Of a stretch of 64,000 nt of DNA, positions 30,162 to 62,826 are shown piece after piece. Each line of letters begins with the position of its first letter. Position 1 is the first letter of the stretch. A program made the translations under genes and the position numbers. The notes below the pieces were generated by a model. That model saw nothing but the letters and a program-made list of their open reading frames with translations, made no database searches and was not told the DNA's origin. Source of the DNA: a virus; IMG/VR virus record IMGVR_UViG_3300033146_004128, positions 32,001 to 96,000 of that record. One strand, 5' to 3'.

Positions 30162-30220
30162 AAAATACCAGCCTAGGTATTTACAAAAGTATTATATCAT
30201 AAAAATACCAGGCTAGGTAT
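30162..30220. promoter_or_regulatory. two palindromic operator-like boxes (ATACC-N6-GGTAT) 40 bp apart flanking an extended -10 (TGATATAAT, minus strand, 30191-30199)
   Basis: AAAATACCAGCCTAGGTAT at 30162-30180 and AAAATACCAGGCTAGGTAT at 30202-30220. Confidence 0.65.
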
Positions 30221-32496: not shown

Positions 32497-32505
32497 TGTT
32501 ATAAT
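32497..32505 (+). promoter_or_regulatory. extended -10 TGTTATAAT at the head of the morphogenesis operon
   Basis: T-rich upstream sequence; 50 nt before ATG 32556. Confidence 0.65.
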
Positions 32506-38105: not shown

Positions 38106-39935
38106 ATGGGATCAACGTTTAGTGGAAAATTATACGACAGAAGGTTTATGGGTAAGTATAATAACCTATCCAGTGTATACGCAGACATTCTGCCAAATGA
38201 TATCAAGGAAGTCATACAGTGGTCAGAGTTCATTGTAGCAAACGTACCTACTGTAGCATCAGCATTGGACAAGATGTCAAGTGTTGCCATTACAGCTCTA
38301 CAGTATATGACGTCAGACCTTACAGAGATGTCTTCGACAGACGCTAAGTCATGGAAGAATATCCTTGAAGAAGAAATGGACATAGAAGAGAAGCTACAAG
38401 AGATAGGGTTCAACTATCTTCTTAACGGTAACGTATTCCTATCTGTGTTCTTCCCAGTACATAGAACTGTTACATGCATGAAGTGCAAGACTTCACTGTC
38501 ACAGGAGAGATTCTCTTCAGTAAGCAAACTGAAGCCAGAGATGGAAGAGATGCTAGTGCAGAACAATGGTAAGAGAGACGGAAAGAAGATGCCAGGAGAG
38601 AAACAGCACTCAAAGAAGAAGGTGTTGGTATTCAAGGGTGCTTGTCCTGCCTGTGCATCAAAGTCAATATTCACCATACAGGACATAAAGGTGAAGAATA
38701 TGCAAGGGGTAAATGTTGTTAACTGGCCTGTGAACAGTATGAACTTCGTATCTGACAACATCACAGGTAGGAGTACATATTACTACAAGATGCCAAACTC
38801 AACAAAGAAGATGATCACTTCAGGGTTCCTTGACATGCTATTCCATCAGCCATTAGATATGATAGAGTCAGCAGTAAACAATACAGCAGTAAAGTTTGAT
38901 CAGGATAAGATTCTACATATAAAGAGAAAGAAGATGTCCGGGACAAACACAGGATGGGGAATGCCTATACTTACCTCATCGATACCAGAGATGATCTCTC
39001 TACTCTTGCTTAGAAAGTCTCAAGAGAGAATACTATCGGATATGATATTCCCGTTACGAGGATTGTCACCAAGGGCAGCAGGGTCTGATGGTAACGCAGT
39101 GTACAACTTCATGTCCGGAAGTGACCTGACGAAGAAGGTAGAGGCTATTCTGATGCAACATAAGAACAATCCTACCTCTGTAAAGTTCTTCCCTATACCT
39201 CTAGACCAAGTGAATGCATTCGGAGAGGGTAAGGCACTCAACCTAAGCGAAGAGATAGACCAGATATCTACAATGATTATGACTTCTATTGGTGTACCTA
39301 TTGAGTTCGTAAAAGGTGGTCTTGGATATACAGCTGCCGGTGCATCTATTAGAGTGCTTGAAAACCAGTTGATGGGACTAACAAACTCTATGGAGAAGGT
39401 AGCAAACTTTGTAGCCAAGCAGATAGCAACATTCACAGATAAGAAACAGGTAAGGATTAAGATTACTCCATTCAGAATCATCGATGACCTTGCAGAGAAG
39501 CAAATCTTACTTCAAATGTACCAAGGACAGAAAGTATCAGATCACACTATGGCATCTATGTTCAAGCTCGATGCGAAGACAGAGAACGACAGAATGGAAG
39601 AGGAAGCAAAAGCAGGTGCAAGAACACAGGCTGCTGTGCAAGAGTATATGCAGAACATATCTCAGAACCTCGAAGAGAAGGCAAAGACAGAGGCTATGCT
39701 ATCTCAGAGTTCTACTCAGCAAGTCAATCAACAAGCTATCATGCAAGAGGCAGATCAGATGGCAGCACAGTTACAGCAGATGGAATCCGGGCAGCGTAAG
39801 TCAGAGATGGATCGTCTTCAGAAAGAGAACTGGCTATTATATGTTGCTACTAAGGAACGCATGGAGTTCAATGGTCGCAAGGACGCTACACAGGCTGCGC
39901 AACAACAACAAGCTGAACAGCAAGGAGGAATGTAA
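38106..39935 (+). CDS. portal protein-like, with CxxC..CxxC insertion
   Basis: VPTVASALDKM, NYLLNGNVF, KILHIK..S...GWGMPIL, long helical Q-rich C-terminus. Confidence 0.65.
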   Translation: MGSTFSGKLYDRRFMGKYNNLSSVYADILPNDIKEVIQWSEFIVANVPTVASALDKMSSVAITALQYMTSDLTEMSSTDAKSWKNILEEEMDIEEKLQEIGFNYLLNGNVFLSVFFPVHRTVTCMKCKTSLSQERFSSVSKLKPEMEEMLVQNNGKRDGKKMPGEKQHSKKKVLVFKGACPACASKSIFTIQDIKVKNMQGVNVVNWPVNSMNFVSDNITGRSTYYYKMPNSTKKMITSGFLDMLFHQPLDMIESAVNNTAVKFDQDKILHIKRKKMSGTNTGWGMPILTSSIPEMISLLLLRKSQERILSDMIFPLRGLSPRAAGSDGNAVYNFMSGSDLTKKVEAILMQHKNNPTSVKFFPIPLDQVNAFGEGKALNLSEEIDQISTMIMTSIGVPIEFVKGGLGYTAAGASIRVLENQLMGLTNSMEKVANFVAKQIATFTDKKQVRIKITPFRIIDDLAEKQILLQMYQGQKVSDHTMASMFKLDAKTENDRMEEEAKAGARTQAAVQEYMQNISQNLEEKAKTEAMLSQSSTQQVNQQAIMQEADQMAAQLQQMESGQRKSEMDRLQKENWLLYVATKERMEFNGRKDATQAAQQQQAEQQGGM

Positions 39936-40919: not shown

Positions 40920-40942
40920 TATTTGAATATGGAAAGAAATAC

Positions 40943-40950
40943 TGTATAAT
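40943..40950 (+). promoter_or_regulatory. -10 TGTATAAT with TTGAAT -35-like element
   Basis: Intergenic, upstream of ATG 40974. Confidence 0.55.
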
Positions 40951-40973
40951 TTACAGATAAAAAGGAATATAAT

Positions 40974-41882
40974 ATGTCAAAATTTATGACCAGTGTAATT
41001 ATAAGGGGAGGGATAAACTTCTTGGGTAAACATCTATTAAACAGAGAAGGACCTCTCCAATCAACAATAGATGCAAGCGACCCCGCATCATGGACGTATA
41101 CAGGGAGTCAATTTTCATTTTCAGAAGGTACATTCAGCAGTACAAACCACTCTCATCGCTCAACATCTAGTATGAGCATGACAGTTCCACTGCTTAGTTT
41201 CATTAGACTTAAGTGGAGAGTAAGCTCAGAGGGCGGATGGGATTATATAAATATTTACATAAACGGAGAGAGAGTGATAAGAAGGTCAGGAGACAGTGGC
41301 TGGACTGACTTCAACTACACTGTAGATGGAGAACCACTTGAAAATGCAACTATAAAGATAGAATATTACAAGGATGGTAGTGTATCTAGAGGAGAAGATA
41401 GATGTCAAGTGAAAGATATAGTCGTGTCTGGACCAACTGTGTTTGGACCTCCTCCATGGAGACTTATGCATCAGTTCGCCTCAAATACCGGTGCACCTCC
41501 ATACCCTAACGAAGTCAGCCTTAATGGGGCTCACGAGGCAATCAATACACACGCCAAGCTTGACGCTGCAGGAATAACACACTCGTTGAGCCATTATAAC
41601 TATTCAGGCTATACTAGACCGGCAAACTACCTTCAGGCATTCAGAAGCGGATCACCTCAAGGATATATAGAAGTCACTATGCCAGTTGGATTCACTGAGA
41701 TGAAAGTAGAGTGGGGAAACTGGTATAGTGGACATGTGTTCCTTAAAGTTAATGGGACAACAATAAAGACTCTTTCTCCAAACCAGAAAGCAGATGTTGA
41801 AGAGTTCGCATGCTCCTCAGGCAGCAAGGTTAGAATACAAGAGGATGGGATTCTTTTTGTGAAAGCAATATGGGTACGATGA
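40974..41882 (+). CDS. beta-sandwich carbohydrate-binding/adhesin-like protein
   Basis: WRVSSEGGWDY..IYING...SGDSGW...YYKDGS...GED...KDI jelly-roll motif. Confidence 0.6.
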   Translation: MSKFMTSVIIRGGINFLGKHLLNREGPLQSTIDASDPASWTYTGSQFSFSEGTFSSTNHSHRSTSSMSMTVPLLSFIRLKWRVSSEGGWDYINIYINGERVIRRSGDSGWTDFNYTVDGEPLENATIKIEYYKDGSVSRGEDRCQVKDIVVSGPTVFGPPPWRLMHQFASNTGAPPYPNEVSLNGAHEAINTHAKLDAAGITHSLSHYNYSGYTRPANYLQAFRSGSPQGYIEVTMPVGFTEMKVEWGNWYSGHVFLKVNGTTIKTLSPNQKADVEEFACSSGSKVRIQEDGILFVKAIWVR

Positions 41883-43269: not shown

Positions 43270-43304
43270 ATATACTACGATAACAAGAATTTTAAGGAAA
43301 TAAC

Positions 43305-44375
43305 ATGAGTAACAAAAAAGTTTTACTATATAAAGACAAGATGGCTCCACTTACACATAGAGAATTGGATGACAACTTTGAGCTATTGGGTGCCAAGGCA
43401 GATGGAACGTTCTCTGGAGACTTTGCTATTGTGCTTGAAGGAATGAAGAGCGAAGACTATGTGAACCTTAGTAATGGTGCAGGTCACGCAAAACTGGAGG
43501 GACCTTGCCCACTATACGATAGTGACGGTAGTGCTATGTATCCTATAGAAGGTGAGATAGGAATAAAATTTGATCCTTCGACAGGAAGAAAGTCTTTTGT
43601 GTTGCTACCAAATGATGAAGATATGGCTCTATCTCCAAACGGACAGATAATTGCATCAGCAGGTGGGAGTAGAATTGTAATATCTTTTCTTGAAGATGAA
43701 AAATTTGGAGAGTTTTCGTTACCTGCTGGTTTTACCTCCCAGACATATTGTTGGTGGAAAGATGACGAAACACTATATGTAGCTGGCCACAGATATACTG
43801 ACATACTTGTACTGAAAGTTGATCTAACTAAAGACTCTCTTCTTGTGCTAGATAGTACCATGTCCGATATGTTGCCGGTAAACAAAAGAGGGGTCGTTCT
43901 TAGTGGAGACTATGCATGTTCCTATGACTATTCCAACAATAGCATTGTGACTGTTCATATTTCTACAGGTACAAAAGCGGTATTACCAGAAGAGTCAATA
44001 TCAGCTACAGCAGAATTTTTTGCCATATCTTTAATTGGGATGAAAGATAACAAGTCAATGTTTATAGGAATAGAGTATAACATGAATGAAGCTGGGGATA
44101 ATCTAGATATAGGATCCCTAGCTGTTGTTGGTATAGCCTTGGACGTGAACGGGTCTTTTACAAAGATGTATGATATGGATATGTCTGTTCTTGAGTCAGC
44201 AATGCTACTAAGCGATGATAATGAATTTGTACTTCAAAGACATGTCGTCCAAGGAAAAGAGTTCTATAAGCCTACATATCAAGAATTTTTTACAGGAATA
44301 TACATCCCAAATGAGGATAGATGTTTAGGTATAAACACGCTTTCTCAGGAGATAGCAGTTAAAAAAGGCAAATAA
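43305..44375 (+). CDS. tail fiber/appendage protein with N-terminal LTHxELDxNF motif and possible beta-propeller
   Basis: KMAPLTHRELDDNF; MALSPNGQIIAS propeller-like blade. Confidence 0.55.
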   Translation: MSNKKVLLYKDKMAPLTHRELDDNFELLGAKADGTFSGDFAIVLEGMKSEDYVNLSNGAGHAKLEGPCPLYDSDGSAMYPIEGEIGIKFDPSTGRKSFVLLPNDEDMALSPNGQIIASAGGSRIVISFLEDEKFGEFSLPAGFTSQTYCWWKDDETLYVAGHRYTDILVLKVDLTKDSLLVLDSTMSDMLPVNKRGVVLSGDYACSYDYSNNSIVTVHISTGTKAVLPEESISATAEFFAISLIGMKDNKSMFIGIEYNMNEAGDNLDIGSLAVVGIALDVNGSFTKMYDMDMSVLESAMLLSDDNEFVLQRHVVQGKEFYKPTYQEFFTGIYIPNEDRCLGINTLSQEIAVKKGK

Positions 44376-44376
44376 C

Positions 44377-45171
44377 ATGACATGGATAATCACAGACCTG
44401 ACATCGAGTGGCTATGGAGTATATGTAGATCTTCCCTCTGATACAGAGGAGACCGCATGTACTGTAAAAGAGATATATACCGGGATGACATATCCGGTTG
44501 GCGATGAGTGGAGAATGGTGTCTGAGCCAATCGAAGGTCACAACGGAAGCGTTCAGGGTGGAACATACGTAGCTAATGGATATGTTGCATCGGGGTACAC
44601 AGAAATAGAGGCTGCTCCAACTTACACAGAATCAGGATATGTGGCAGCCGGATACGTTGAAGGTGGATCACCTATACCTGCTTCTTATGTGGCAGCCGGA
44701 TATGTAGCTTCTGGGTATACAGAAGGTGGAGCGGTAGTATGTACTATAGGAACCAATAATGATCTAGCTGTTGACGCAGGATTTGTTGACGCAGGCTACT
44801 TTGAAGGTGACGAGGGACAGAGTAATTATGTTGCTTCAGGATATGTTGCCAGTGGATATCTTCCTTCTGCAGACACCGCATGTGGTATCTATGTTGAAGA
44901 GGTAGAAGGAGTCTGGGAAAGATGGATAGTTGACCCAGTAGACTCTACATATGTCAGATCAGGGTTCTTCGCTGAAGACATAAACCCAACTCCATGTGTG
45001 CCATACACAGAGGAAGAAGACGATGATATGTTCAGTTCAATATACGGACTGTATCCTTTCGGGGACCAAGTACCTGCACTTCTAATAAATAAGAGCCTGA
45101 ATAGACTGTTCGGATCAAGAGTCCCAATAAAAGAGAGACCAGATATTGGCCACTCTGTACTAGGGAGATAG
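44377..45171 (+). CDS. YVxxG pentapeptide-repeat structural protein
   Basis: About 10 copies of YVASG/YVAAG/YVANG/FVDAG. Confidence 0.7.
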   Translation: MTWIITDLTSSGYGVYVDLPSDTEETACTVKEIYTGMTYPVGDEWRMVSEPIEGHNGSVQGGTYVANGYVASGYTEIEAAPTYTESGYVAAGYVEGGSPIPASYVAAGYVASGYTEGGAVVCTIGTNNDLAVDAGFVDAGYFEGDEGQSNYVASGYVASGYLPSADTACGIYVEEVEGVWERWIVDPVDSTYVRSGFFAEDINPTPCVPYTEEEDDDMFSSIYGLYPFGDQVPALLINKSLNRLFGSRVPIKERPDIGHSVLGR

Positions 45172-45172
45172 T

Positions 45173-45676
45173 ATGGGATGGACAGACTTATTTAAGTCCA
45201 AAGAGGCAGACACTCTTAAGGACATAGACAAGATAGTAAAAGACCTAAAGGATCTTCAGTTGAGTATAATTGAGTTCACAAATGATTCCTCTATAGATAT
45301 GGAGATATCAGAGATGATAGGGAAGCTTAAGGCACAGAACCCAGAGAATGTAGATCCTGAAAAGCTTATGGAGTTTCTGGCTTATCTTAGCGACAAGACA
45401 AAAACAAAGAGTGACATGACACAGAGCCACTATACTGACACAATGATGAAGGTTATTCATGCTAAAATAGAACTGCTTGCAATATATCATACCGGTGTAG
45501 TAAGAGGTAGTGTGATAAGGCAGATATTCTCAATGTCTTCAGTATGGCCTATTCTATTCTCGCTTGTGTTTATTGTGGCTATCCTGATAGGTACACACAA
45601 GTATGATCCGTCTTTGTTTCGTGACTTAGGGATATCAGGACAAAGAACAGTAAAGACAGAAGGAACTTCAAAATGA
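45173..45676 (+). CDS. membrane protein with a C-terminal TM helix
   Basis: VWPILFSLVFIVAILIG; coupled to the receiver gene. Confidence 0.8.
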   Translation: MGWTDLFKSKEADTLKDIDKIVKDLKDLQLSIIEFTNDSSIDMEISEMIGKLKAQNPENVDPEKLMEFLAYLSDKTKTKSDMTQSHYTDTMMKVIHAKIELLAIYHTGVVRGSVIRQIFSMSSVWPILFSLVFIVAILIGTHKYDPSLFRDLGISGQRTVKTEGTSK

Positions 45677-46305
45677 TATCTTTTTTAAGAAAAATAATGA
45701 GCCCAAGTGAAGAGACAGTAGACTCAAAGAGTATAGATGATATCCGGGAGAGAATGGCTAATCATCTTAAGGATACAAAGACTCCAGCTCTCAAATATCC
45801 AGACGGATTTGCCTCTGACAGGAAGACGGTAATTATACTTGATGACAGTGCAGGTGCAACTATGCTGTTTGATGACACGATACGAGAACTTCAAAAGAGT
45901 GGGGAGAACTGTGTAAACGAGATACAATTCGTAAAGATAAGCACACCTCAGGCAGTATTTATGCTTAAGAATGAAGTTAACAGAGGAAACTTGTCAAACA
46001 TAGTAGGTGCAGTGCTTGACATTACAATAGGAGGATATGCTATAGTTGATGGCAACACGGTTATCTTGGACGGTATCGATGCCTTTGAATTTCTTAGCTC
46101 AAGATTCCCTGAGGCAGAGATGAGGTTCTTTACTTCTCACTCTATGAACGAGAAGAACGCAGAGATATTCAGGTTTATGCAGAAATACAAGAAGCTAACT
46201 GGTGAAGACATTACAGGTAAGACATACATAAAAAATCCGTTCTCTACCAACAGAATAGACATGATGAGAGATATACTAGAGAGTATATGTAATGCAAAGA
46301 ATTAA
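45673..46305 (+). CDS. stand-alone response-regulator receiver domain protein
   Basis: VIILDD, AVLDI (phospho-Asp), DGIDAF, RFFTS, YIKNPF; no output domain. Confidence 0.75.
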   Translation: MISFLRKIMSPSEETVDSKSIDDIRERMANHLKDTKTPALKYPDGFASDRKTVIILDDSAGATMLFDDTIRELQKSGENCVNEIQFVKISTPQAVFMLKNEVNRGNLSNIVGAVLDITIGGYAIVDGNTVILDGIDAFEFLSSRFPEAEMRFFTSHSMNEKNAEIFRFMQKYKKLTGEDITGKTYIKNPFSTNRIDMMRDILESICNAKN

Positions 46306-47704
46306 AACATTTGTTGACTCATCGAGCGTAACATTCGCTGCCAAGTTCTTCTTTATGTTCGGTATCATTTATACCCTAGTAGTGAGTATAGCATTTCTTG
46401 TAGTTGTTGACGAGTGGAAGCAATATGCGAGCAGTGGAGTATATGCTGTAGAAAAGAGCGAGGCTCATGCTATAGATGTGTGTGACATACTTCAGTGTGA
46501 GTATATAAATATTGATGGAAGTATGATATATAGGATATCAAAAGGTGAATATGACGTAAAGAAGCTTCCGGAAAATAAGGTTATGGAGGCGATAAACTCA
46601 ATCCTTACTGTCGATATACCAAGTCATACAAGTGGTGTTACATTTGGATTCTCACTAGAAAACATAATAAAATTCTATGCCAATGCCGTTACAATACTCT
46701 ATTCACTACTCATGATACTGTCATTACTCTTCCTGGTGCGTTTTTTGATTAAGAACAATATCAACAATCTAGTTCAGGGAGCAAGCACAACAGCGTCATT
46801 GCACAATAAGAATATGGCTATATTAGCAGAGCAACTTCATCATGAATTGAATACACCACTATCTGTTGTAAAAGAGCTTTGTGACAAGATATTCGTCAAC
46901 GTAGAAAGAGATGCAACATGTGGTGTTGGAGATCCAAAAAAGAGATCAGCATGCGACAAGTGTGAGGCAGCGAAAAACTACTCTCAACTTAGTGTGTACA
47001 AGAGAATAATAGACAACAATATAAAGCAAGCATTTGTATTCATAGAGAGAATGGCAGATGTAAAACAGATACGATATTCCAATGGTAATAAGAGCGTATA
47101 TGACATAACAAAAGCAACCTTTGATGTGATGGGCGTATTCAATAGAGCAAACTACTCGTTTGATGTAGATCAGAAGCTAAGAGGATACACCCTAGATCAT
47201 GCCTCCGGGCTTCAGAACCATGAGCTAATGAATATACTCCTGAACCATATTAAGAACTCTCTAGAAGCAGGGTCTAGTCATATATTCATATCCCTTAACA
47301 AGATAGAACCTCCAAAGAAAACCTCATTAGACAAGATAATACTAAAAACTATAGACATACTGAATAAGTACAATATAGGTGTACCAACATACGCATCAAT
47401 AGTAATGCTGTCTAAGATGCTTAGTCCAAAGGTTAAGTCAGGTGTAACTATTGCAAGGATAGCACTCATAGATAATGGATCAGGTATACCTAAAGAATTT
47501 CAAGCCAATATATTCAATCTTAACACGTCTACAAAAACAAAGGATGGAGTCATACGTGGCGCAGGTCTATATCTAAACAGACAGATATTAAGAGATGCCG
47601 GCGGAGACATCTGGCAACATGACACAAGTGGAAAAGGGACAACCTTCATATTGGACGTTCCAGTAGCAGCTGCCTCGAAAGAGATGTTCCTCTATGGGAC
47701 ATAA
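46292..47704 (+). CDS. membrane sensor histidine kinase
   Basis: Two TM regions; H-box LHHELNTPL, N-box NHIKNSLEA, DNGSGIP, F box, GAGLYL. Confidence 0.93.
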   Translation: MQRIKTFVDSSSVTFAAKFFFMFGIIYTLVVSIAFLVVVDEWKQYASSGVYAVEKSEAHAIDVCDILQCEYINIDGSMIYRISKGEYDVKKLPENKVMEAINSILTVDIPSHTSGVTFGFSLENIIKFYANAVTILYSLLMILSLLFLVRFLIKNNINNLVQGASTTASLHNKNMAILAEQLHHELNTPLSVVKELCDKIFVNVERDATCGVGDPKKRSACDKCEAAKNYSQLSVYKRIIDNNIKQAFVFIERMADVKQIRYSNGNKSVYDITKATFDVMGVFNRANYSFDVDQKLRGYTLDHASGLQNHELMNILLNHIKNSLEAGSSHIFISLNKIEPPKKTSLDKIILKTIDILNKYNIGVPTYASIVMLSKMLSPKVKSGVTIARIALIDNGSGIPKEFQANIFNLNTSTKTKDGVIRGAGLYLNRQILRDAGGDIWQHDTSGKGTTFILDVPVAAASKEMFLYGT

Positions 47705-47706
47705 TA

Positions 47707-47715
47707 TGATATAAT
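47707..47715 (+). promoter_or_regulatory. extended -10 TGATATAAT
   Basis: Immediately after the kinase stop, upstream of 47752. Confidence 0.65.
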
Positions 47716-47751: not shown

Positions 47752-49089
47752 ATGCCAAACGCAGAAATGGTAGCTATGCTACAACACTTAATGGCGATCA
47801 CTGGTGCTCACACTGGTACAGCGATCAAAAATGCTATAGACAATCTTGTTGGAACACACGATATTGACGTAGATGCTTTACAAGCAAAAATCCAAGTAAT
47901 ACAAGACATATTGGATGCTGACCCGTCGACCCCGGAGTTTGACCAAGCTCAGAACATAATCACTTCACTTAACTCAATCCTCTCTCGTCTTTCTATTGTA
48001 GAGACTACGATTGCACGCCTTGAAGGTGACGAAACCGTTGCTGGATCAGTAGACTTTAAAGTCGCTGCTGAAAGAGCGAGAGCTATGGCTGCCGAGCAGG
48101 CGAACGCTACATGCTGTTCAACAAATGCTGACAACCTTACAGCTCACATTGCTGCATACGATGCCTTCGTAACAGCTACGAATGCTTCACTAACAACACT
48201 TGCTAGTGACATATCTACAAATGCTCAAGCGATCTCAGATGAGACAACTCGTGCAACAGCTGCAGAAGATGCGATCAACGCTGCTATCTCGGCTATACAG
48301 ACAGCTACAGGTGCATCTGATGCAGACTTAGCAGACCTTACAGATCTTGTTGGAGACATTGTAACTGGTACCGGTCTAAACCCGGACGGCTCATTCACTC
48401 CAGACACTGCAGCCTCTGACGCTACAAACCTATACGAGTACATCCATGATGTTACTGCTGAAGGTGCTGACCGTGCGAATACGCTACGTAAAGCCATCAG
48501 ACGTCTTGCTCGTAAATCACGTCTTGCTGATGAAGCACTAGACGCTCGTCTTGACATACTTGAGGGTGATGCTTCTGTTGCCGGTTCAATCGTGCAAATT
48601 GTAACTGATGCAGTTGCTACAGAGACAGCTCGTGCTGAAGCTGCTGAAGCTGCTCTTGCTCAAGCTGTGGCAGATGAGGAAACTCGTGCCACTGCTGCTG
48701 AAGTTGCACTACAGGCACAGATCGATGATCTGTCTGGTGGTGGTGACGGTTCAATACAGTCAGTACGTGATGAAGTAGATGCTACTCAGACCGGTGCAGG
48801 CTTAGAGGCTGACGGATCGTATGTTGCTGATGCTACGACTGAGTATCTTGGTGATGCGACATCTCTCAAAGATGCCGATAAGAAGCTTGACGTTGAGATC
48901 AAAGGTCTCGAAGATCGTAAAGCTGACCGTACAGAGGTAGTTCTTTCTGCAGATATTGCAGCTATCGACTACTCAGCACTCGGAACAATCTTCCTAGATG
49001 CTCTTAACTGTGGTCTAACAGGAGGAACTGACTGTGGAACACCTAACACAACACCTGATGGTGGTGATGGAGACGGTGCTGTACTTTAA
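47752..49089 (+). CDS. alpha-helical coiled-coil fiber protein
   Basis: Four E-x-x-RA-x-AAE repeats, Ala/Asp-rich heptads. Confidence 0.7.
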   Translation: MPNAEMVAMLQHLMAITGAHTGTAIKNAIDNLVGTHDIDVDALQAKIQVIQDILDADPSTPEFDQAQNIITSLNSILSRLSIVETTIARLEGDETVAGSVDFKVAAERARAMAAEQANATCCSTNADNLTAHIAAYDAFVTATNASLTTLASDISTNAQAISDETTRATAAEDAINAAISAIQTATGASDADLADLTDLVGDIVTGTGLNPDGSFTPDTAASDATNLYEYIHDVTAEGADRANTLRKAIRRLARKSRLADEALDARLDILEGDASVAGSIVQIVTDAVATETARAEAAEAALAQAVADEETRATAAEVALQAQIDDLSGGGDGSIQSVRDEVDATQTGAGLEADGSYVADATTEYLGDATSLKDADKKLDVEIKGLEDRKADRTEVVLSADIAAIDYSALGTIFLDALNCGLTGGTDCGTPNTTPDGGDGDGAVL

Positions 49090-49097
49090 GTCTTACA

Positions 49098-49119
49098 GAG
49101 AACTCCTTCGGGAGTTTTC
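49098..49119 (+). terminator. Rho-independent terminator-like hairpin with C-UUCG-G loop
   Basis: GAGAACTCC-TTCG-GGAGTTTTC 9 nt after the stop. Confidence 0.75.
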
Positions 49120-49159
49120 GATAAGGCCTAAGCCATAGCAATAAAAACAGGAGAAAGAA

Positions 49160-50110
49160 ATGCAATCAATTAATGTGCATGATGCAGAAGAACTACAGAT
49201 AGGTGAGACCACGCTAAGCAGTCTTAATGCTGGAAAAATATACAAGATAACTGCTAAAAAAGGTCACGTGTATACAATGTCAATGAAAGCTCCAGACGGG
49301 AACTATATTTCACTTCGTGGATTCAATGCATATGGATACGAAACACTTAGCTCTTCAGCATATGGTGAAGAGTATAGTAGTGAGATAGAGATTCAGCTTG
49401 AGGAATGGGAAGAAGAAGATACTCCAGTATTCTTTGAGCTTAATGCAAACTCAGGAGACTATACTGGAACTGTTAAAATTTCTGAAACATTCGTGACCCT
49501 TCGTGAGAAGAAAGGAAAGTCTCTTACTCATTCTGAAATGGATAACAATTTCAGAATGATGGATAAATCAATGCGTGTCCTTGAAGAGAAACTCTGGTCT
49601 AACAGATTTATACCTGAACATACTGCACTATTTGCACAGGGGATAATGGGAACCGTGAATCCTGGGTCATCAGGATCAGCGTCTCTATTCCAGATATCAA
49701 CGGATGACTTTGAAGAGGATGATCTCATAATGGTTGAGATGAAGCTCATGGTAAGAGAAGCAGGAACGTCAGTACCATTCACACTAGTCAATACACTGTC
49801 AGTTTTCAAGGTGTTGGCTAATGGTGAAGTAGCAGAAGAGGACTTCCAGTATATGTCTGGGCCTTATGACTTTGCTACAATAAAGCCTGCCGTGTATGGT
49901 AGTGAAGACAGCAACATAGGGTACAGCGAAGAGTCAGTTACTCCAGAAGGAGAAGATGCTATAGAAGTTGAGTATGTTGGAACACTAAGCTTCAGTTCGT
50001 CGTCGTCACCTAGTGCTCCACAGACATATTATGTTTATGACTCAGAAGATGGGTCAGGTAGTGGTTCCGGAAGTGGTTCTGGAAGTGGTTCTGGAAGTGG
50101 TGGGAAATGA
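49160..50110 (+). CDS. fiber/appendage protein with internal LTHSEMDNNF motif and a GS-repeat tail
   Basis: TLREKKGKSLTHSEMDNNF; C-terminal (GS)n encoded by GGAAGTGGTTCT tandem units. Confidence 0.65.
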   Translation: MQSINVHDAEELQIGETTLSSLNAGKIYKITAKKGHVYTMSMKAPDGNYISLRGFNAYGYETLSSSAYGEEYSSEIEIQLEEWEEEDTPVFFELNANSGDYTGTVKISETFVTLREKKGKSLTHSEMDNNFRMMDKSMRVLEEKLWSNRFIPEHTALFAQGIMGTVNPGSSGSASLFQISTDDFEEDDLIMVEMKLMVREAGTSVPFTLVNTLSVFKVLANGEVAEEDFQYMSGPYDFATIKPAVYGSEDSNIGYSEESVTPEGEDAIEVEYVGTLSFSSSSSPSAPQTYYVYDSEDGSGSGSGSGSGSGSGSGGK

Positions 50111-50802
50111 TAACGGTAGTCTATCCTCTTATTAAAGCAGAGAGAGATTGTGAGGAGTTTCGATACTCTCTAAGATCTCTTGAGGCAAATATGCAAGAGG
50201 AATTCAGAGTATACGTGATAGGGCATAAGCCTTACTGGTGCACAGGGGTAGAGCATATACCATACTCTGATGCAGGAGAGAAGCAGCAAAATAAGAACAT
50301 AAAGGCACTTATAGCATCATCTCTTGCCGATGAATTTCTATGGGTGAGTGACGATATGTATATTGATGAGCCTGTATCAATAGATGAACTCTCTAAACAG
50401 TACTATCTTGAGGTGTTCAGTGGCATCAAGAAGGGAAGAGTAAAAGGGTTCAAGGCAATGCTATGGAGAACCTATGATAAGGCAAAAGCACTTGGCCTGC
50501 ATGGGCTAAACTATACTACACATACACCGGTACTATTTAATTCTGAAAAGCTAAGAAGAGCGATGGTTGATTTCGGTGCAGTAGAGAATGGATTACATCT
50601 TGAGACTCTATATCTGAATCATATTGGTGCAGAGAAAGATGCCATCAAAATAGGTAGCGAGAAAGTTGGCAGATATAGCAACAGTGAATTTCGTGGTGCC
50701 AAAGATGCTATATATTTGAGTTTTGACGATGCCGGAAAGGGCAGTGGAATATTCAAGTACATCAAGGCTAAGTATAAAAATAAAAGCAGATTTGAAATAT
50801 AG
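50107..50802 (+). CDS. Stealth-CR2-like/GT-A-type glycosyl or sugar-phosphotransferase
   Basis: EEFRYSLRSLEAN, VYVIGHKP.W, FLWVSDDMY, THTP. Confidence 0.6.
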   Translation: MITVVYPLIKAERDCEEFRYSLRSLEANMQEEFRVYVIGHKPYWCTGVEHIPYSDAGEKQQNKNIKALIASSLADEFLWVSDDMYIDEPVSIDELSKQYYLEVFSGIKKGRVKGFKAMLWRTYDKAKALGLHGLNYTTHTPVLFNSEKLRRAMVDFGAVENGLHLETLYLNHIGAEKDAIKIGSEKVGRYSNSEFRGAKDAIYLSFDDAGKGSGIFKYIKAKYKNKSRFEI

Positions 50803-50839
50803 GCAGTACCAGTTAGGTATTGTAGCCATATACTATTTC

Positions 50840-50848
50840 TGCTATAAT
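50840..50848 (+). promoter_or_regulatory. extended -10 TGCTATAAT
   Basis: Intergenic, upstream of 50875. Confidence 0.7.
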
Positions 50849-50874
50849 GACAAAAAACAATAAAAGGACAACAC

Positions 50875-51987
50875 ATGCCAGTATCAGTACCAATAACAAC
50901 AGAGGGTCAATTCCTAAACAACTTAGATTTTGCAGAGTTTGGGTTTGCGCCATCAGTAGACGGAGTATATAATATTACATTGTTTGCACTAAATGATAGC
51001 TACACTGCAGCAGGGGAACTTACTCCATCAGCTCGTGTTAACGGGGACATAGTAAATGACAAAGACGGAGACCCAGTTGATACATCAACATCATACTCAC
51101 TAGAAAGAGGCGAGTTCTGTACCATAGCTATCCCACTCGTAGCAGGGGGAACGGTATATATTCAGACAGGTGCAGCCAAGATAGCAGGTATTGTTAGACT
51201 TGAAAAGCCTTTCATCTCAAGAGAGGCAAAAGGGTCAGAACTTTCTTTCGAAGAGATGGATGCGAATGTTGCGCTAGGTAAGGAAGCAATATTTAGATTG
51301 GAGCAGGATGAATTAGAGGCTCTAGCAGAGAAGCATTCAGTTGAGCCTGCTGCTAAGACACTTATCCCTAATGGAGATATAGATGCATTCTTTGATGCGA
51401 TGTCATCAAACTATGTTAGTAGACCGATTCAGCTTGGAACAGATGATAATGGTCAGTTCGGGTTTGGATATATGCAAATAGATGAATATGCAGGAAACTT
51501 TGTTGTAAGAATGCCTATCCCAGGATTTGACTCAGTATTCTCTCCAAGTTCAATGCTTAGCTTCGGCAAGGACTATTATGACAATTTATCCATTACAGAA
51601 TGGACTATAGAGGCTGATGAGTATGGCTCTAGTGGTTGGGTAACTTCAACTGTTACAAATGCAGATCTTGTGGCAATGAAAGAAATCGCTGAGCTCGATA
51701 TAGGCCAAGGAGAAGAGCACATTGTACTAATGGCATTCGCAGGGGATAACTACCTGGCACCTCAGATAGGAAAAGGATTTGGAAATTTCGGATACGACTT
51801 TAGCGACAGCCCTATGCCATACTCAGAGCCTATGCATCCTGCTGAAGTATGTGGAGTACCAAACAGAGTTCTTACAACAGTGTCTATGACCGTAGGACAA
51901 AAGAACATTAGGGTTGCAAGATGGTGCGCCATGAACATCGACGAGTACAACAACATCACATTTGACCCATCAGCACAAGCGGGCTAA
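50875..51987 (+). CDS. fiber/appendage protein with internal LSFEEMDAN motif
   Basis: SREAKGSELSFEEMDANV after an N-terminal beta domain. Confidence 0.6.
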   Translation: MPVSVPITTEGQFLNNLDFAEFGFAPSVDGVYNITLFALNDSYTAAGELTPSARVNGDIVNDKDGDPVDTSTSYSLERGEFCTIAIPLVAGGTVYIQTGAAKIAGIVRLEKPFISREAKGSELSFEEMDANVALGKEAIFRLEQDELEALAEKHSVEPAAKTLIPNGDIDAFFDAMSSNYVSRPIQLGTDDNGQFGFGYMQIDEYAGNFVVRMPIPGFDSVFSPSSMLSFGKDYYDNLSITEWTIEADEYGSSGWVTSTVTNADLVAMKEIAELDIGQGEEHIVLMAFAGDNYLAPQIGKGFGNFGYDFSDSPMPYSEPMHPAEVCGVPNRVLTTVSMTVGQKNIRVARWCAMNIDEYNNITFDPSAQAG

Positions 51988-51989
51988 GC

Positions 51990-52622
51990 ATGAGACATGA
52001 CAACTTAACAGCTGTCGTAACTCACTACAATACACCGAGAGACCTGCTCGTCAGGGCTCTTGCCTCTCTAGATAAATTCAAAATACCATATATCATTGTT
52101 GATGACGGAAGCGACCAAGAATTTGTTGATGGGCTACGTGAGTTTGGCGACAGGGTGATATACCTGAAGAAGAACATAGGTCAAGCACAAGCATTTTATA
52201 CTGGAGCATATGCAGTAAAGACAAAATGGACTCTAAAACTAGATAGTGATGATTATATCACAGACCATCCAGTATATGACGATACTCATGATGCACATGT
52301 TCCTAAGATAAAATACGATGCTCCTATAACACACAAAGGATTGATGGCTGTACCATATTGTTACTTTTCAGGATCAGTTATTAAGACATCATTTTCATGT
52401 GCTTCATATGCTAAAGTCACCAGAAGATTAAATGATGATGTTGAGGCGTATGCACACTTGATAGGTCTTGGAGCAAAGATAGCTACATATGAGTCTAGTT
52501 GGTATAAGTATGCATCAGACAAGCCTAAGAGCGTGTCTAAATCACACAATATATCAGAAAAAAAACAGGCACAAAGGGAAATAAGACAATTAATAACAGA
52601 AGAGTATGGAGAGTTCGTATGA
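51990..52622 (+). CDS. glycosyltransferase family 2
   Basis: VVTHYN, ALASL, IIVDDGSD, NIGQAQA, LDSDD. Confidence 0.85.
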   Translation: MRHDNLTAVVTHYNTPRDLLVRALASLDKFKIPYIIVDDGSDQEFVDGLREFGDRVIYLKKNIGQAQAFYTGAYAVKTKWTLKLDSDDYITDHPVYDDTHDAHVPKIKYDAPITHKGLMAVPYCYFSGSVIKTSFSCASYAKVTRRLNDDVEAYAHLIGLGAKIATYESSWYKYASDKPKSVSKSHNISEKKQAQREIRQLITEEYGEFV

Positions 52623-53338
52623 TAGCTGATGTGCAGATGGAAATAACAACGGTATGTAATATGGCATGCTTCTATTGCCCTATCGAGGACATGCCACATA
52701 AACATATGGATCTTGCGCTGGCCAAGGAGATTGTTGACCGGTATGATAAAGGTTCAATGTTCATGCTCAATGGTACCGGAGAGCCAACATTGTATCCGCA
52801 TCTTCTTGAGCTTGTTACTTATATTGTGGACAATGGGAAGCTAGCAAACTTCATTACAAACGGAGTGAACTGTGTAGATGAGGACATACTTAGATTGCTT
52901 GATCACATAGCCTTCTCTGTTGATGACTCAGATACAGACAAGAATGTGAAGACACTAGAGAATGCAGAAAAAGCAATACGTCATGCATGCTCAATAATTG
53001 GAGGCGGAAAAGTTTCTACAATGACTGCTGACTATGGTCAAGATTTGTCAAAGATAAAAGCATTCAGTGAAGAGCTTGGGTTCACGATGAGAAAGCAGAG
53101 GCTGCAACCAAAGGCGTCATATCAAAAGAAGTATTCTATACCTGGGCATAAGCCAAACAGGCTTGAATGTCCATATATAAAGTTCTCGTATATGGATTTC
53201 TATTTTCAGAACGGAACAAAGGCACCATGCTGTTTCATGGTATATGAAGAGCAAAGCATGTCACGTGATGAAGTTGAGAAATCCCTTAATAAGGGAATAG
53301 TTCCAGAGTGCTGCTCCGGATGCTACTTAATGAAATAA
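52619..53338 (+). CDS. radical SAM protein with short SPASM/Twitch-like C-terminus
   Basis: CNMACFYC (CxxxCxxC), GTGEPTL, FITNG, CPY...G..APCC, C-terminal CxxC. Confidence 0.9.
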   Translation: MIADVQMEITTVCNMACFYCPIEDMPHKHMDLALAKEIVDRYDKGSMFMLNGTGEPTLYPHLLELVTYIVDNGKLANFITNGVNCVDEDILRLLDHIAFSVDDSDTDKNVKTLENAEKAIRHACSIIGGGKVSTMTADYGQDLSKIKAFSEELGFTMRKQRLQPKASYQKKYSIPGHKPNRLECPYIKFSYMDFYFQNGTKAPCCFMVYEEQSMSRDEVEKSLNKGIVPECCSGCYLMK

Positions 53339-54014: not shown

Positions 54015-54023
54015 TGCTATAAT
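54015..54023 (+). promoter_or_regulatory. extended -10 TGCTATAAT
   Basis: Intergenic, upstream of 54050. Confidence 0.7.
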
Positions 54024-58547: not shown

Positions 58548-58556
58548 TGCTATAAT
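58548..58556 (+). promoter_or_regulatory. extended -10 TGCTATAAT upstream of the RNA polymerase gene
   Basis: 22 nt before ATG 58579, AGGA SD follows. Confidence 0.7.
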
Positions 58557-58578: not shown

Positions 58579-61500
58579 ATGACAAGTCTTAACAGGGATC
58601 ACAATGAGATAAATGAAGCTATTCACAATGAGATAGTTAAGGCTTTCGAGGGAAGAAAGGTAGAGGGAAAGACAAAGACTCTTGAGTACTCCAATGTGAC
58701 AGGAGCAAAAGCAGACATGTCATACCGAAAGCTAACAGATGCAATAAACTCAGGTGGAACAATAGCTAGAAAATATAAAGCTGATGTTACGATAAGAGAT
58801 AACGAGACCGGTAAAGTACTTGATAAGAAGAGTGGTGTACATATAGGGGAGACTCCAATTTACACAAAGAAGGGTGGGTTGGTTGTTGACGGGAATACAT
58901 ACAACCTTCCTAGCCAGATAAGACTTAAGCCTGGTGCGTATACTCTCAACAAGGCAAATGGCGATGTTGAGACTATGATGAACGTAAAGAACGGAAGAGG
59001 TATGAAGCTTGTATCTCCTCAGGACAAAGATGATGTAAAATTGCAGATAGGTTCAAGACAGTTTAATCCTCTTGATGTCGCAAAGATACTTGGTGCAACG
59101 GATAAGGAATTGTCATCAAACATAGGTAAAGATGTTGCTGCTCACTTAAATAAGAAGTCGAATGTTGAAGGAACAGCACTTAAGCTATCTCAGACCCTTG
59201 GGCTTGTCGGTCCAGACATAACACCTCCACACAAAGAAGTGATATCAAATCTACGAGATTATTTTGGAAAGACTGAGCTAGATACAAGCGTAACTACTCA
59301 TACACTTGGAAGGGCAATAGATAAGATTGATAAAGATGCGATAATGCTTGGTATCAAAAGGAATGTTGCTGTCAAGAGAGGGACAGAAGAGGAAGATGAC
59401 AAAGAAAACCTAATGTTCAAGAAGATTATCCCTCCAGAGAAACTTATGGTAGAGGGTGTAAAGAGGGACCTAATGAAGCCAGAGGCAAGAATGAAAGGTC
59501 TTCTGAATAACCCATTTAACCATGCAAGCATAACAGAGGTTCTTTCTGAGCCTACATTGAAGCATGCAGCAAAGAAGTTTGTGACAACAAGTGCGATCTC
59601 AAGAATGCCTGAAGAGTACAATCCATTACATACATTGCAAGGGAGTAGTGATATAACTCCATTGGGAGAAGGCGGTATAACATCTACCGAGATGATAACA
59701 CCATCTGTAAGGTCACTACACCTATCACAGCTTGGATTTATAGACCCTATAAAGTCTCCAGAGGGTGCAAACACTGGAGTCACATTAAGTACGACTCACG
59801 GGGCTTATATAGACGACAAGGGTAATGCTGCCATGAAGGTTAAGAACTTAAAGTCTGGGAAGATTGAGACAAAGACTGTGGCAGACCTATGGGACAAGAA
59901 GATAGCGTTCCCTGATCCAAACAAAAAAGGAGAGGTTGGCATAAGACACAAGAGCGATATCAGTGTAGGCAAGATGAAAGATGCTGACTATCAGATAACG
60001 CACTCTGAGAATATGTATGGGCCGGCTATGAACTCTCTTGGAATAATAAGTTCAAATGACCCAACCAGAAACCTTATGGCATCAAAGCATGTCATGCAAG
60101 CACTTCCTCTTGTTGATGGCGATGCTAACCCGGTAAGTCTGCTTGGAGCAAATGGAAAGAGTATGCTAGCAAACATAGCATCGAAGCACTTGCCTACTGC
60201 GAGTGTTTCCGGGACTGTTACAAGGGTTGATACTAGAGCTGGGAAGATACACTATAAAGATTCGTCTGGAAAAGAACACAACAGTGACTACGCTATATCT
60301 CCAATGCAATTAAATACAAAGACTTTCATACAGCATTCTCCTATAGTTAAAGCAGGAGACAAAGTAGAGGCAGGACAGGCTCTCGCTGATTCAAACTTCT
60401 CTAAGGGTGGAGAATTGGCCATAGGAAAGAATCTTAGAACAGCATGGATGATGTACCCAGGTACAAGAAATGATGCATTCGTATTGTCTGAGTCTGCAGC
60501 TAAAAAGATGACATCGGTACACTCTTCAAAGTTTGATATAGATGGGACAAAAGGTACGATACTGGATAAGAAGAAGTTTGCAGCCATGTTCCCAGAGGTT
60601 GTTAAGAAGATAAGCCTTGACAAATATGATGACAGGGGGATAATTCTTCCTGGTCAGACAGTGGCTAAAGATGAACCAATCGTTCTAGGCATGAAAAAGA
60701 TGGATCCATCAGAGGTCAGATTTGCAAATGACAAAGTAAAAAAATTACTATATGGCGGAATGGCACCGGTTATGCAAAAATGGAAGGGAGACAATTCAGC
60801 AACCATATCTCATGTCACAACCAAAGGATCCCAGCATAGAGTTATTGCTCAGTACAAGGCAGAGATGAAGACTGGAGATAAGCTTGCAGGTAGATCTGGA
60901 AACAAAGGTATTATCTCAGCTGTTATCCCAGACAAGGAGATGCCTAGAGATGAGAATGGAAAGCCTATAGAGCTTATACTTGGTGGTGCTGGTGTTAACT
61001 CAAGACAGAACCCTGCTCAGATCATAGAAGCTCAACTTACGGAGGTAGCAAAGAAGACAGGGAAGAAGTACGTACTTCCTCACTACACTCATGATGATCT
61101 TCATATATTTGCAAACAACGAGGCAAAGAAGAACAATGTGAACATGTATCATGAAATATACGACCCTGTAAGAAAGACCAAATTGAAGAATAAGGTATTT
61201 GTGGCAGACTACAATGTAATGAAGTTGTTCAAGCAGGGAGAGGGGACATACTCAGCAACAGGTCATGGCCCGGTTGACTCATTGAACCAACCGAAGAAAG
61301 GAGGAAAAGAGTCTGCGGCATCGATATCTAATATGGAGATAAACTCTCTATTGTCACATGACGCAAGAGACTTCCTCAAAGAGGTTGGAACAGTAAAATC
61401 ACAGAGAAACCAAAAGTGGTTCTCTGCATTTGAGTCAGGAGCTATACCGCCTGCACCTGAGAAGAAGTCTGCTAGGGACAATTTTCATGGGCTTCTGAAC

Positions 61501-62826
61501 CAACTCAACATATCAGTGAGAGAGGACGGAACAAGTAAACACATAGTACCTCTAACGGATAAAGATATAGTAAGGAAAAGTAGTGGTAAAATTATTGAGC
61601 CGTATGGTCTTAAGCGTAATACTCTGGATGCTGTCAGTGGCGGCTTTTATGACACTAGTGTATTTGGTGGACATGGTGAAAACTTCGGTCACATAGATCT
61701 TGGATCACATATCATTAACCCTCTATACAAAAAGCCAGTGGCGGCTATGATGGGTACCACAGAAAAAGGTCTAGATAAGATGATGGAGTCAGAGGGCATA
61801 TCAAACATATACAAAAAGATAAGTGGCTCAAGACTAAAGTCAACAGTGAATAGGTTAAAGAAAGACATAGAGAAGACTAAAGATACATCAAAAATAGACA
61901 GAAGCATGAAGGCGATAAAGGCTCTAAGAAAGATAGATAGTCTTGGAGATAACCCTGCAGACGTTATGTTTATGTCAAAAGTTCCGGTATTGCCTGTGAA
62001 GATGAGACCAATATCTAAACTTCCAGACGGCAGTATTATCGAGCATGATGTAAATCATCACTATGCGAACATAATAAGGGCGTCAAATTCTTTACAGAGA
62101 GCAAATGAATCCGATACTCCGGCACCAATAAAGAACAGACTTCATAGAGAGCTACAGGACCATGTTGGGGCAATGTACGGAACAAACAAATCTCCTGATC
62201 CAAAGATGGAGAGAAAAGAGGTCAAGAGCGTAATGGATGTTGTGGCCGGCTCAAACCCAAAGACATCTTTTTGGCATCAAAAGATACTTAAGAATAAGGT
62301 TTTTGGATCAGGTAGAGCTGTAATTGTTCCACACATAAAGACTATGAATATGGACCAAGTAGAGATACCTAAGTATGTAGCATGGAAAGCGTTTGAGCCT
62401 CATATAACAAGACGCATGTCTCAGATGGGTATACCTAATGATATGGCGAAAGACATGATTGACAAGAAGAACGAGACAGCAACCAATGTTCTGCATAGCG
62501 TTATGAAGGAGGTTCCGGTTGTTATAAACAGAGCACCTGCTCTTCATAAGCACAATATGACAGGACACTACGCAAAGATATCATCCGGAAATACAATGCA
62601 TATACCTCCTGAGATAGAGAATGGTCAAAATGCAGACTACGACGGAGATCAACTTGCAGTACATGTTCCTCTTGGGCATGCTGCAATAAAGGATGTTAAG
62701 ACAAAGCTTATGGCGTCAAAGCAGTTGTTTACTGATACGTCTAAGAATGGTCTGACAATGGGAATAGACTTGGATCCTTTTATAGGATTCTATGATGCTA
62801 CAAAACATAAGAATGGTAAAAAGTAA
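58579..62826 (+). CDS. rpoBC: phage two-barrel DNA-directed RNA polymerase: beta fused to the N-terminal (catalytic) part of beta'
   Basis: Beta motifs: GETP.YT..GG..VDG, SPEGANTG, LMASKHVMQALPL, GDKLAGRSGNKG, NSRQN. Beta' motifs: FGHIDL, VPVLP..MRP, GRAVIVP, NRAPALH, NADYDGD. Confidence 0.95.
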   Translation: MTSLNRDHNEINEAIHNEIVKAFEGRKVEGKTKTLEYSNVTGAKADMSYRKLTDAINSGGTIARKYKADVTIRDNETGKVLDKKSGVHIGETPIYTKKGGLVVDGNTYNLPSQIRLKPGAYTLNKANGDVETMMNVKNGRGMKLVSPQDKDDVKLQIGSRQFNPLDVAKILGATDKELSSNIGKDVAAHLNKKSNVEGTALKLSQTLGLVGPDITPPHKEVISNLRDYFGKTELDTSVTTHTLGRAIDKIDKDAIMLGIKRNVAVKRGTEEEDDKENLMFKKIIPPEKLMVEGVKRDLMKPEARMKGLLNNPFNHASITEVLSEPTLKHAAKKFVTTSAISRMPEEYNPLHTLQGSSDITPLGEGGITSTEMITPSVRSLHLSQLGFIDPIKSPEGANTGVTLSTTHGAYIDDKGNAAMKVKNLKSGKIETKTVADLWDKKIAFPDPNKKGEVGIRHKSDISVGKMKDADYQITHSENMYGPAMNSLGIISSNDPTRNLMASKHVMQALPLVDGDANPVSLLGANGKSMLANIASKHLPTASVSGTVTRVDTRAGKIHYKDSSGKEHNSDYAISPMQLNTKTFIQHSPIVKAGDKVEAGQALADSNFSKGGELAIGKNLRTAWMMYPGTRNDAFVLSESAAKKMTSVHSSKFDIDGTKGTILDKKKFAAMFPEVVKKISLDKYDDRGIILPGQTVAKDEPIVLGMKKMDPSEVRFANDKVKKLLYGGMAPVMQKWKGDNSATISHVTTKGSQHRVIAQYKAEMKTGDKLAGRSGNKGIISAVIPDKEMPRDENGKPIELILGGAGVNSRQNPAQIIEAQLTEVAKKTGKKYVLPHYTHDDLHIFANNEAKKNNVNMYHEIYDPVRKTKLKNKVFVADYNVMKLFKQGEGTYSATGHGPVDSLNQPKKGGKESAASISNMEINSLLSHDARDFLKEVGTVKSQRNQKWFSAFESGAIPPAPEKKSARDNFHGLLNQLNISVREDGTSKHIVPLTDKDIVRKSSGKIIEPYGLKRNTLDAVSGGFYDTSVFGGHGENFGHIDLGSHIINPLYKKPVAAMMGTTEKGLDKMMESEGISNIYKKISGSRLKSTVNRLKKDIEKTKDTSKIDRSMKAIKALRKIDSLGDNPADVMFMSKVPVLPVKMRPISKLPDGSIIEHDVNHHYANIIRASNSLQRANESDTPAPIKNRLHRELQDHVGAMYGTNKSPDPKMERKEVKSVMDVVAGSNPKTSFWHQKILKNKVFGSGRAVIVPHIKTMNMDQVEIPKYVAWKAFEPHITRRMSQMGIPNDMAKDMIDKKNETATNVLHSVMKEVPVVINRAPALHKHNMTGHYAKISSGNTMHIPPEIENGQNADYDGDQLAVHVPLGHAAIKDVKTKLMASKQLFTDTSKNGLTMGIDLDPFIGFYDATKHKNGKK

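Follow-up and report, generated by a model that had tools for sequence, protein, structure and literature searches.

A few systems, such as arbitrium and the VqmA-type receptors, are known to let phages respond to signals of host or phage origin, and to our knowledge no phage lineage has been described in which self-contained two-component sensing is conserved. Here we describe a three-gene unit, A-B-HK, located at 45173-47704 of a 64,000-nt window that corresponds to bases 32001-96000 of the IMG/VR virus record IMGVR_UViG_3300033146_004128. The record is 187,664 bp long, carries direct terminal repeats and is rated complete, representing an uncultured phage of ~188 kb. The unit encodes a tail-anchored membrane protein (A), a predicted stand-alone divergent receiver (B) and a predicted membrane histidine kinase (HK, gene C). 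All three genes are intact, under purifying selection and co-inherited across a deep radiation of large uncultured phages, and they likely constitute a phage-native, envelope-sensing phosphotransfer unit that acts by protein contact.

Among cellular systems, A-B-HK is best compared with the classical HisKA kinases that pair with single-domain regulators, namely HK853/RR468 of Thermotoga maritima, KinA/Spo0F, DivJ/DivK and CheA/CheY. As in these pairs, a DHp-CA membrane kinase, with an H-box of the form H-E-L-x-T-P-L and the N, G1, F and G2 boxes, is encoded by a gene adjacent to, and apparently co-transcribed with, that of a receiver possessing the DD/D/T/K pocket and no output domain. HK853 is the best structural match for the kinase, and RR468/Spo0F for B. 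Unlike the classical pairs, A-B-HK is encoded by, and confined to, large phages, and a third, tail-anchored membrane protein is co-inherited with the pair.

Two further systems share parts of this design. The Clostridioides difficile myovirus phiCDHM1 reportedly carries host-like agrB, agrD and agrC with close bacterial homologues, including peptide signal genes, and no response regulator. It likewise represents a phage-borne sensor histidine kinase of the cellular signalling type, whereas A-B-HK includes a receiver, lacks both a gene for signal synthesis and close cellular homologues, and is deeply conserved in phages. The kinase of the Detocs system is said to be soluble. Detocs is bacterial and consists of the kinase DtcA, the stand-alone receiver DtcB and the receiver-PNP effector DtcC (bioRxiv 10.1101/2023.01.24.525353). 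Both Detocs and A-B-HK are three-gene phospho-signalling cassettes with a receiver-only protein in the arena of phage-host conflict, but A-B-HK belongs to a virus, has a kinase that sits in the membrane with an extracytoplasmic loop, and contains no receiver fused to an effector. A receiver-effector fusion, the feature that would assign the unit to Detocs, is found neither among the listed matches of the B family nor in the genome, and the Detocs models of PADLOC gave no match to A, B or the kinase at E ≤ 0.1. A comparative review of jumbo phages records only a divergent receiver, never linked to histidine kinases (PMC7824862), and we found no description of the A-B-HK family in the literature.

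The region 45173-47704 consists of three co-directional open reading frames (ORFs) with exactly the boundaries first noted for it (Table 1). The upstream gene stops with a TAG at 45169-45171, leaving a gap of one base before the start of A; A and B share an ATGA overlap at 45673-45676, and B and C overlap by 14 nt (46292-46305). An earlier note, made from the sequence alone, had read these overlapping genes as a membrane protein, a receiver-only regulator and an intact kinase, which the ORFs, the kinase boxes, the receiver quintet and the predicted fold bear out. The same note had described the 5' edge as devoid of promoter, repeat and composition break. Indeed, no promoter-like element lies at the 5' edge, where the gap measures 1 nt and the scan stayed at chance level, as did the sigma-70 promoter and terminator consensus scans around the module; no flanking repeats were found around the unit, and the GC content is flat at 0.38-0.42 throughout, with no composition break.

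Sequence search against Pfam assigned gene C to HATPase_c (PF02518) with an E-value of 1.6e-11 (45 bits against a cut-off of 26.4). A sequence search of the PDB placed its H-box HHELNTPL in register with SHELRTPL of HK853, and aligned the CA domain as well. In an alignment of 20 homologues reaching down to 27% identity, the H-box residues H184, E185, T188 and P189, the N-box KNS (K321/N322/S323), D394/G396/G398 of G1, F408, and R422/G423/G425 of G2 are invariant, together with the pair C64/C69 and a family-specific motif YSNGNK (262-267). With its N, G1, F and G2 boxes, gene C has the GHKL ATP-binding domain of the HisKA/HATPase_c class. In the predicted structure, helices 123-207 and 230-262 form the DHp hairpin that carries H184. 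The Pfam HisKA model (PF00512) gives no score on gene C and scores only on distant family members (P0110-P0115). Altogether, the sequence predicts an intact histidine kinase with every catalytic motif, expected to autophosphorylate and to transfer the phosphoryl group.

The AlphaFold2 model of the kinase has a mean predicted local distance difference test (pLDDT) score of 78.8. Hydropathy and model agree on two transmembrane helices, at about 21-39 and 130-153, which flank a ~90-residue loop. The modelled layout comprises the first transmembrane helix, a small α/β extracytoplasmic domain (about 60-121), a second transmembrane helix that continues without a break as DHp helix 1, a Cys-rich loop (C197/C210/C221/C224) that caps the hairpin and is poorly modelled, DHp helix 2, and a CA domain interrupted by a helical insert (345-383). 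This model matched HK853, WalK/YycG and LvrB in Foldseek. Compared to the classical kinases, the linker motif YSNGNK is distinctive, as are the four-Cys DHp loop and the CA insert of ~40 residues, the latter two being specific to the clade of the window. The four-Cys loop (window 46880-46963, aa 197-224) is kept in 9 of 11 close relatives and is a candidate metal or redox site; the insert, which is helical and lies between the N-box and G1, occupies window positions 47324-47440.

In the case of B, the receiver identity emerges from structure prediction. Neither Pfam Response_reg (PF00072, nothing at E ≤ 1) nor NCBIfam, PHROGs or a phmmer search of the PDB recognized the protein, and a six-frame PF00072 search of the whole genome did not flag it. 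A profile built from 15 members of the B family found Spo0F as its top match in the PDB, in register, at an E-value of only 0.36. The AlphaFold2 model (pLDDT 83.6, predicted template modelling score 0.78) adopts a (β/α)5 CheY-like fold, and the leading Foldseek matches in the PDB are all receiver domains, namely Spo0F, FleR, RR468, CheY and NtrX, with E-values of about 5e-5, a probability of 1.00 and template modelling scores, normalized by target, of 0.6-0.72. In this model D57/D58, D116, T154 and K187 sit at the C-terminal ends of β1, β3, β4 and β5, respectively, and D116 is the predicted phospho-acceptor. Among 148 representatives clustered at 50% identity, D57 is retained in 147, D58 and D116 in 146 each, T/S154 in 144 and K187 in 143. 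Outside the pocket, T118, G120, G121, G134, D136 and N159 are further conserved positions specific to the family. Compared to classical receivers, B has a 50-residue N-terminal extension and a β-hairpin insert after β3, and is too divergent for PF00072. By fold and pocket residues, B is thus predicted to be a divergent receiver of the CheY superfamily with a live phospho-acceptor pocket, which by score lies outside the PF00072 sequence model.

The profile of the B family retrieved 321 clusters (50% identity) from 1.84 billion proteins, not the millions of canonical receivers. The 150 matches listed are all 87-292 residues long and none of them is fused to an output domain, so that the absence of such a domain, claimed earlier for the single protein, extends across the family among the matches listed. 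Genome-wide searches found one kinase and one B, and the six-frame search of the whole genome yielded no canonical response regulator. A weak PF00072 match at G000:29781-29906 (13.8 bits) was dismissed, as it lies in an ORF judged by eye to carry an acetyltransferase-like motif. The best viral structural matches of B in BFVD come from EsV-1, Feldmannia virus, Hokovirus, Marseillevirus and Tupanvirus, in addition to scattered receivers of uncultured Caudovirales. For the most part these are large hybrid kinases encoded by eukaryotic viruses, or lone phage regulators whose receivers Pfam detects; their sequences are unrelated to B, and no conserved A-B-HK operon is known among them.

Protein A consists of a helical N-terminal part of about 118 residues, a single transmembrane helix (aa 121-139) and a 28-residue tail. 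It has 72 detectable homologues, many of them on contigs that match the kinase-hit contigs in length, and alignment to a distant member with hhalign reached a probability of 97.8%. Residues D74, K75 and K98 are invariant in 45 sequences. The ESM Atlas model shows a weak likeness to helical bundles; a role as an Hpt phosphotransfer protein was rejected because no His is conserved. PADLOC returned a marginal match of A to HamA (E 0.0067). The predicted complex of A (aa 1-118) with B scored 0.01 against a mark of 0.32, which gives no verdict either way.

Comparison with related contigs revealed a conserved gene order. Close relatives, with kinase identities of 43-59% on contigs of 100-192 kb, carry A-B-HK followed by a protein of ~446 residues. 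Distant relatives (kinase identity about 22-32%) keep the order A-B-HK on phage-like contigs that also encode T4 RNA ligase, ClpX, PIF1 helicase and many small ORFs. The synteny that the earlier note had proposed to look for in related phages is therefore present, down to 22-30% kinase identity. A scan of IMG/VR identified 23 viral contigs of 10-272 kb with the kinase. A survey of 32 loci with hidden Markov models found B as the immediate upstream neighbour of the kinase in 30 of the 31 for which upstream sequence exists, and A, preceding B, in 23 of 32; the complete order is seen in L002, L004, L006, L007, L008, L014, L017 and further IMG/VR loci. In L016, gene A is replaced by a TRIC/Gly_transporter-type membrane protein. 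The latter locus also encodes a second, paralogous kinase of the family (2440-3747, hhalign E 5e-40), which has no B-type receiver next to it. In five loci, a divergent ClpX-like gene is found upstream.

By contrast with this spread in viral contigs, cellular genomes have almost no members of the family. When 185,579 species genomes were scanned with a motif seed, members turned up on only two short contigs of metagenome-assembled genomes (MAGs): a 2-kb Gracilibacteria contig with B-HK (L013) and a 5.8-kb Cloacimonadota contig with A-B-HK (L014). A 5.5-kb Bacteroidales MAG contig encodes proteins of the A and kinase families (P0075/P0324). All three are probably mis-binned phage fragments, so that their taxon labels are not evidence of host. 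The earlier view that the unit is the phage's own agrees with these data, as no near-identical host genes were found in the species genomes and the relatives keep the module. In 50,697 deposited phage genomes we found no DNA match and no match to B, and the kinase gave one weak hit to the CA domain only. The rarity in phages that the earlier note had assumed thus holds for deposited genomes; in metagenomic contigs of large phages, however, the unit is widespread.

The three genes are inherited as a block. Mantel correlations with the kinase distances are 0.84 for B and 0.875 for A (0 of 2000 permutations), as expected for any co-inherited genes. Nonsynonymous divergence (pN) is 0.20-0.30 against a saturated synonymous divergence (pS) of at least 0.73 for A, B and the kinase. 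For the same genome pairs, A, B and the kinase are 50-69% identical, compared to 79-89% for the adjacent coiled-coil protein, so the signalling genes are the fast-evolving part of this neighbourhood. Most other loci have a pair of proteins after the kinase, one of ~90 residues with a shared KGW motif and the other of 370-480 residues; both have a hydrophobic N-terminal segment that may be a signal peptide or a membrane anchor. The distant clade thereby has a five-gene cassette, A-B-HK plus the protein pair, which is not present in the clade of the window.

We propose that the kinase would insert into the host inner membrane, where its ~90-residue extracytoplasmic domain with the invariant Cys pair would read an envelope or external cue. 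Autophosphorylation on H184 would then be followed by transfer of the phosphoryl group to D116 of B. As the B family lacks an output domain, phospho-B would have to act by protein contact, like CheY, Spo0F, DivK and CpdR. The most economical candidate partner would be the co-inherited A, which would place the output at the membrane, for example in the control of a step in the envelope or in lysis; a target in the cytoplasm, from phage or host, would be equally possible. Since the order A-B-HK recurs in dozens of phage contigs and is near-absent from bacteria, the viruses that carry it probably sense something at the cell envelope during infection. Several points weigh against this proposal. 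The unit is known here from its sequence and predicted structures, from which the signal, timing and target are inferred. The periplasmic placement of the Cys pair is an assumption. B escapes every receiver sequence model, its identity being given by predicted fold and motif positions. Moreover, about a quarter of the loci lack A or have another gene in its place, so that A is not obligatory, and the Mantel correlations are no proof of co-evolution at an interface.

A more specific reading, possible but doubtful, is that of a phage-exclusive lineage in which phospho-B would dock on A or on variable downstream partners, so that the envelope cue would be linked to a step at the membrane or in virion assembly, such as the timing of lysis. 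With the same reserve, these partners would be the secreted protein pair in most loci and the coiled-coil fibre-like protein in the clade of the window. Late expression, which the earlier note had inferred, is conjectural, and the roles in lysis timing, superinfection sensing or hijacking of the host that it had offered are speculation. As for the last of these, the kinase might mainly phosphorylate or dephosphorylate host response regulators and so reprogramme the cell, while B would act only as an insulator or a sink for phosphate, the role suggested for DtcB. Such a design would suit the output-free B among the matches listed and a genome with no other receiver able to carry an output, and a stand-alone receiver acting as a buffer is documented for DtcB of Detocs (bioRxiv 10.1101/2023.01.24.525353). 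We nevertheless regard it as unlikely, because B and the kinase are neighbours in a strict one-to-one pairing and have diverged in parallel in hosts that must be very different, which fits a closed cognate pair better than a kinase adapted to diverse host regulators, and the conserved surfaces of B beyond the pocket suggest a partner of its own.

Less probable still is a module for inter-phage or anti-defence conflict, which would detect a superinfecting phage or a host defence signal and trigger exclusion or counter-defence. The lower identity of A, B and the kinase relative to the coiled-coil protein is the pattern expected of conflict genes, and two-component logic is used in defence, as in Detocs; however, PADLOC gave no match at E ≤ 0.1 for B or the kinase, with only the marginal HamA match for A, and no effector domain such as a nuclease, PNP or TIR is fused to the module or constantly adjacent to it. 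It is very improbable, and contradicted by the data, that the genes are a recently acquired host two-component passenger or decaying pseudo-signalling proteins. Phages do generally pick up host genes, and one homologue is labelled as a Bacteroidales MAG protein. Yet synteny persists at kinase identities of 22-30%, the family is near-absent from the 185,579 species genomes, the MAG hits are contigs of 2-6 kb, of which the two retrieved (L013 and L014) carry the phage-type cassette, the catalytic residues are invariant, and neither composition break nor flanking repeats mark an insertion. Overall, a phage-native phosphotransfer unit that senses the envelope and acts by protein contact remains the likely explanation.

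Further analysis of the surrounding spacers suggested how the unit is transcribed. In the 30-64 kb part of the window, nearly every + strand spacer longer than 25 nt contains an extended -10-like element of the type TGnTATAAT with no obvious -35 (Table 1). Genes in this part of the genome seem to use this type of promoter, which may hint at the sigma-factor preferences of the host. TRNTATAAT occurs 16 times in the whole window against 9.8 ± 3.0 expected, a number that 3 of 100 shuffles reach and that alone is not significant; the placement in spacers and the retention in relatives are suggestive. Going upstream from the gene string whose last member is the kinase, TGTATAAT is the first promoter candidate. 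As no spacer between 40974 and 47704 has a TATAAT-like element, including the sole other gap longer than 25 nt (43270-43304), A-B-HK is most simply read as the last three cistrons of a nine-gene operon, without a promoter of its own. The same string encodes a weak tail-protein match and a VRR-NUC-type endonuclease. The element TGATATAAT, whose position is occupied by a -10-like element in three relatives as well, appears to mark where the operon ends and a separate unit begins.

Table 1. Positions of the genes, protein features and putative promoter elements (window coordinates, unless residues or another locus are named).
Feature	Position	Strand	Remarks
Gene A	45173..45676	+	167 aa, tail-anchored membrane protein
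Gene B	45673..46305	+	210 aa, predicted stand-alone divergent receiver
Gene C (kinase, HK)	46292..47704	+	470 aa, predicted membrane histidine kinase
B, N-terminal extension	aa 1-50		AlphaFold2 model
B, core	aa 52-207		AlphaFold2 model
B, β-hairpin insert	aa 121-132		between β3 and α3, AlphaFold2 model
Acidic coiled-coil protein, family F5	47752..49089	+	445 aa
Promoter-like extended -10, TGTATAAT	40943..40950	+	in 54-nt spacer 40920-40973
Promoter-like extended -10, TGATATAAT	47707..47715	+	in 47-nt spacer after the kinase
Extended -10-like elements	32497-32505, 40943-40950, 47707-47715, 50840-50848, 54015-54023, 58548-58556	+	
Extended -10-like element	30191-30199	-	
Post-kinase protein pair	L006 9284-10824; L007 9295-10823; L016 8838-10567; L017 4054-5075		about 10 further loci

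The gene that follows the kinase encodes an acidic coiled-coil protein of 445 residues. The near clade has it in this position, as do two of the distant loci (L028 and L031). Its profile weakly resembles the trimeric fibres P22 gp26 and reovirus sigma-1 (E 0.0016-0.01). Directly after its stop lies a stable hairpin (49098-49119) with a 9-bp stem and a UUCG loop, in a stretch (49085-49135) with a minimum free energy of -20.6 kcal/mol (z -4.9). Together with the element at 47707, this hairpin suggests that the gene forms a separate single-gene unit, and its product is a possible functional associate of the kinase that is separately transcribed. We found no homology between this protein and the 416-residue downstream protein of the distant clade. 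The virion-fibre context in which the earlier note had placed the unit may hold only in part. Apart from the weak coiled-coil likeness to trimeric fibres, the flanks have no match to virion families, as Pfam and PHROG structural matches are lacking for 43305-45171 and 47752-50110. The endonuclease lies in the same operon, and the distant modules lie among ClpX, RNA ligase and helicase genes. Upstream, the tail-protein match spans 40974-41882, and a weak portal match spans 38106-39935.

Other genes of the window were noted in passing. The stretch 50107-50802 encodes a Stealth_CR2-like protein, which is below threshold in Pfam (26 bits against a cut-off of 39.4) and has a solid PHROG family match; an unannotated 210-residue gene (51990-52622) and a radical-SAM-like protein (52619-53338) follow. 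As a guess, 50107-53338 is a surface-polysaccharide or modification cluster. At 58579-62826, a protein of 1415 residues combines RNA polymerase beta-type and beta-prime N-terminal domains in a single chain, and the relative L004 has the same domain arrangement in 1411 residues. Searches of the genome for Phage_lysozyme, Amidase_2, SLT and Sigma70_r2 domains found none.

Altogether, A-B-HK provides a concrete, testable case of virus-autonomous environmental sensing, and the family offers orthogonal kinase/receiver pairs for studies of specificity. As the B family is invisible to the standard domain models, annotation pipelines miss phage receivers, and cassettes of this kind get binned into MAGs as 'bacterial' kinases. 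If the unit indeed represents a phage-exclusive lineage whose receiver docks on A or on variable downstream partners, it would be a virus-owned decision circuit built from two-component parts, rather than a borrowed host pathway.

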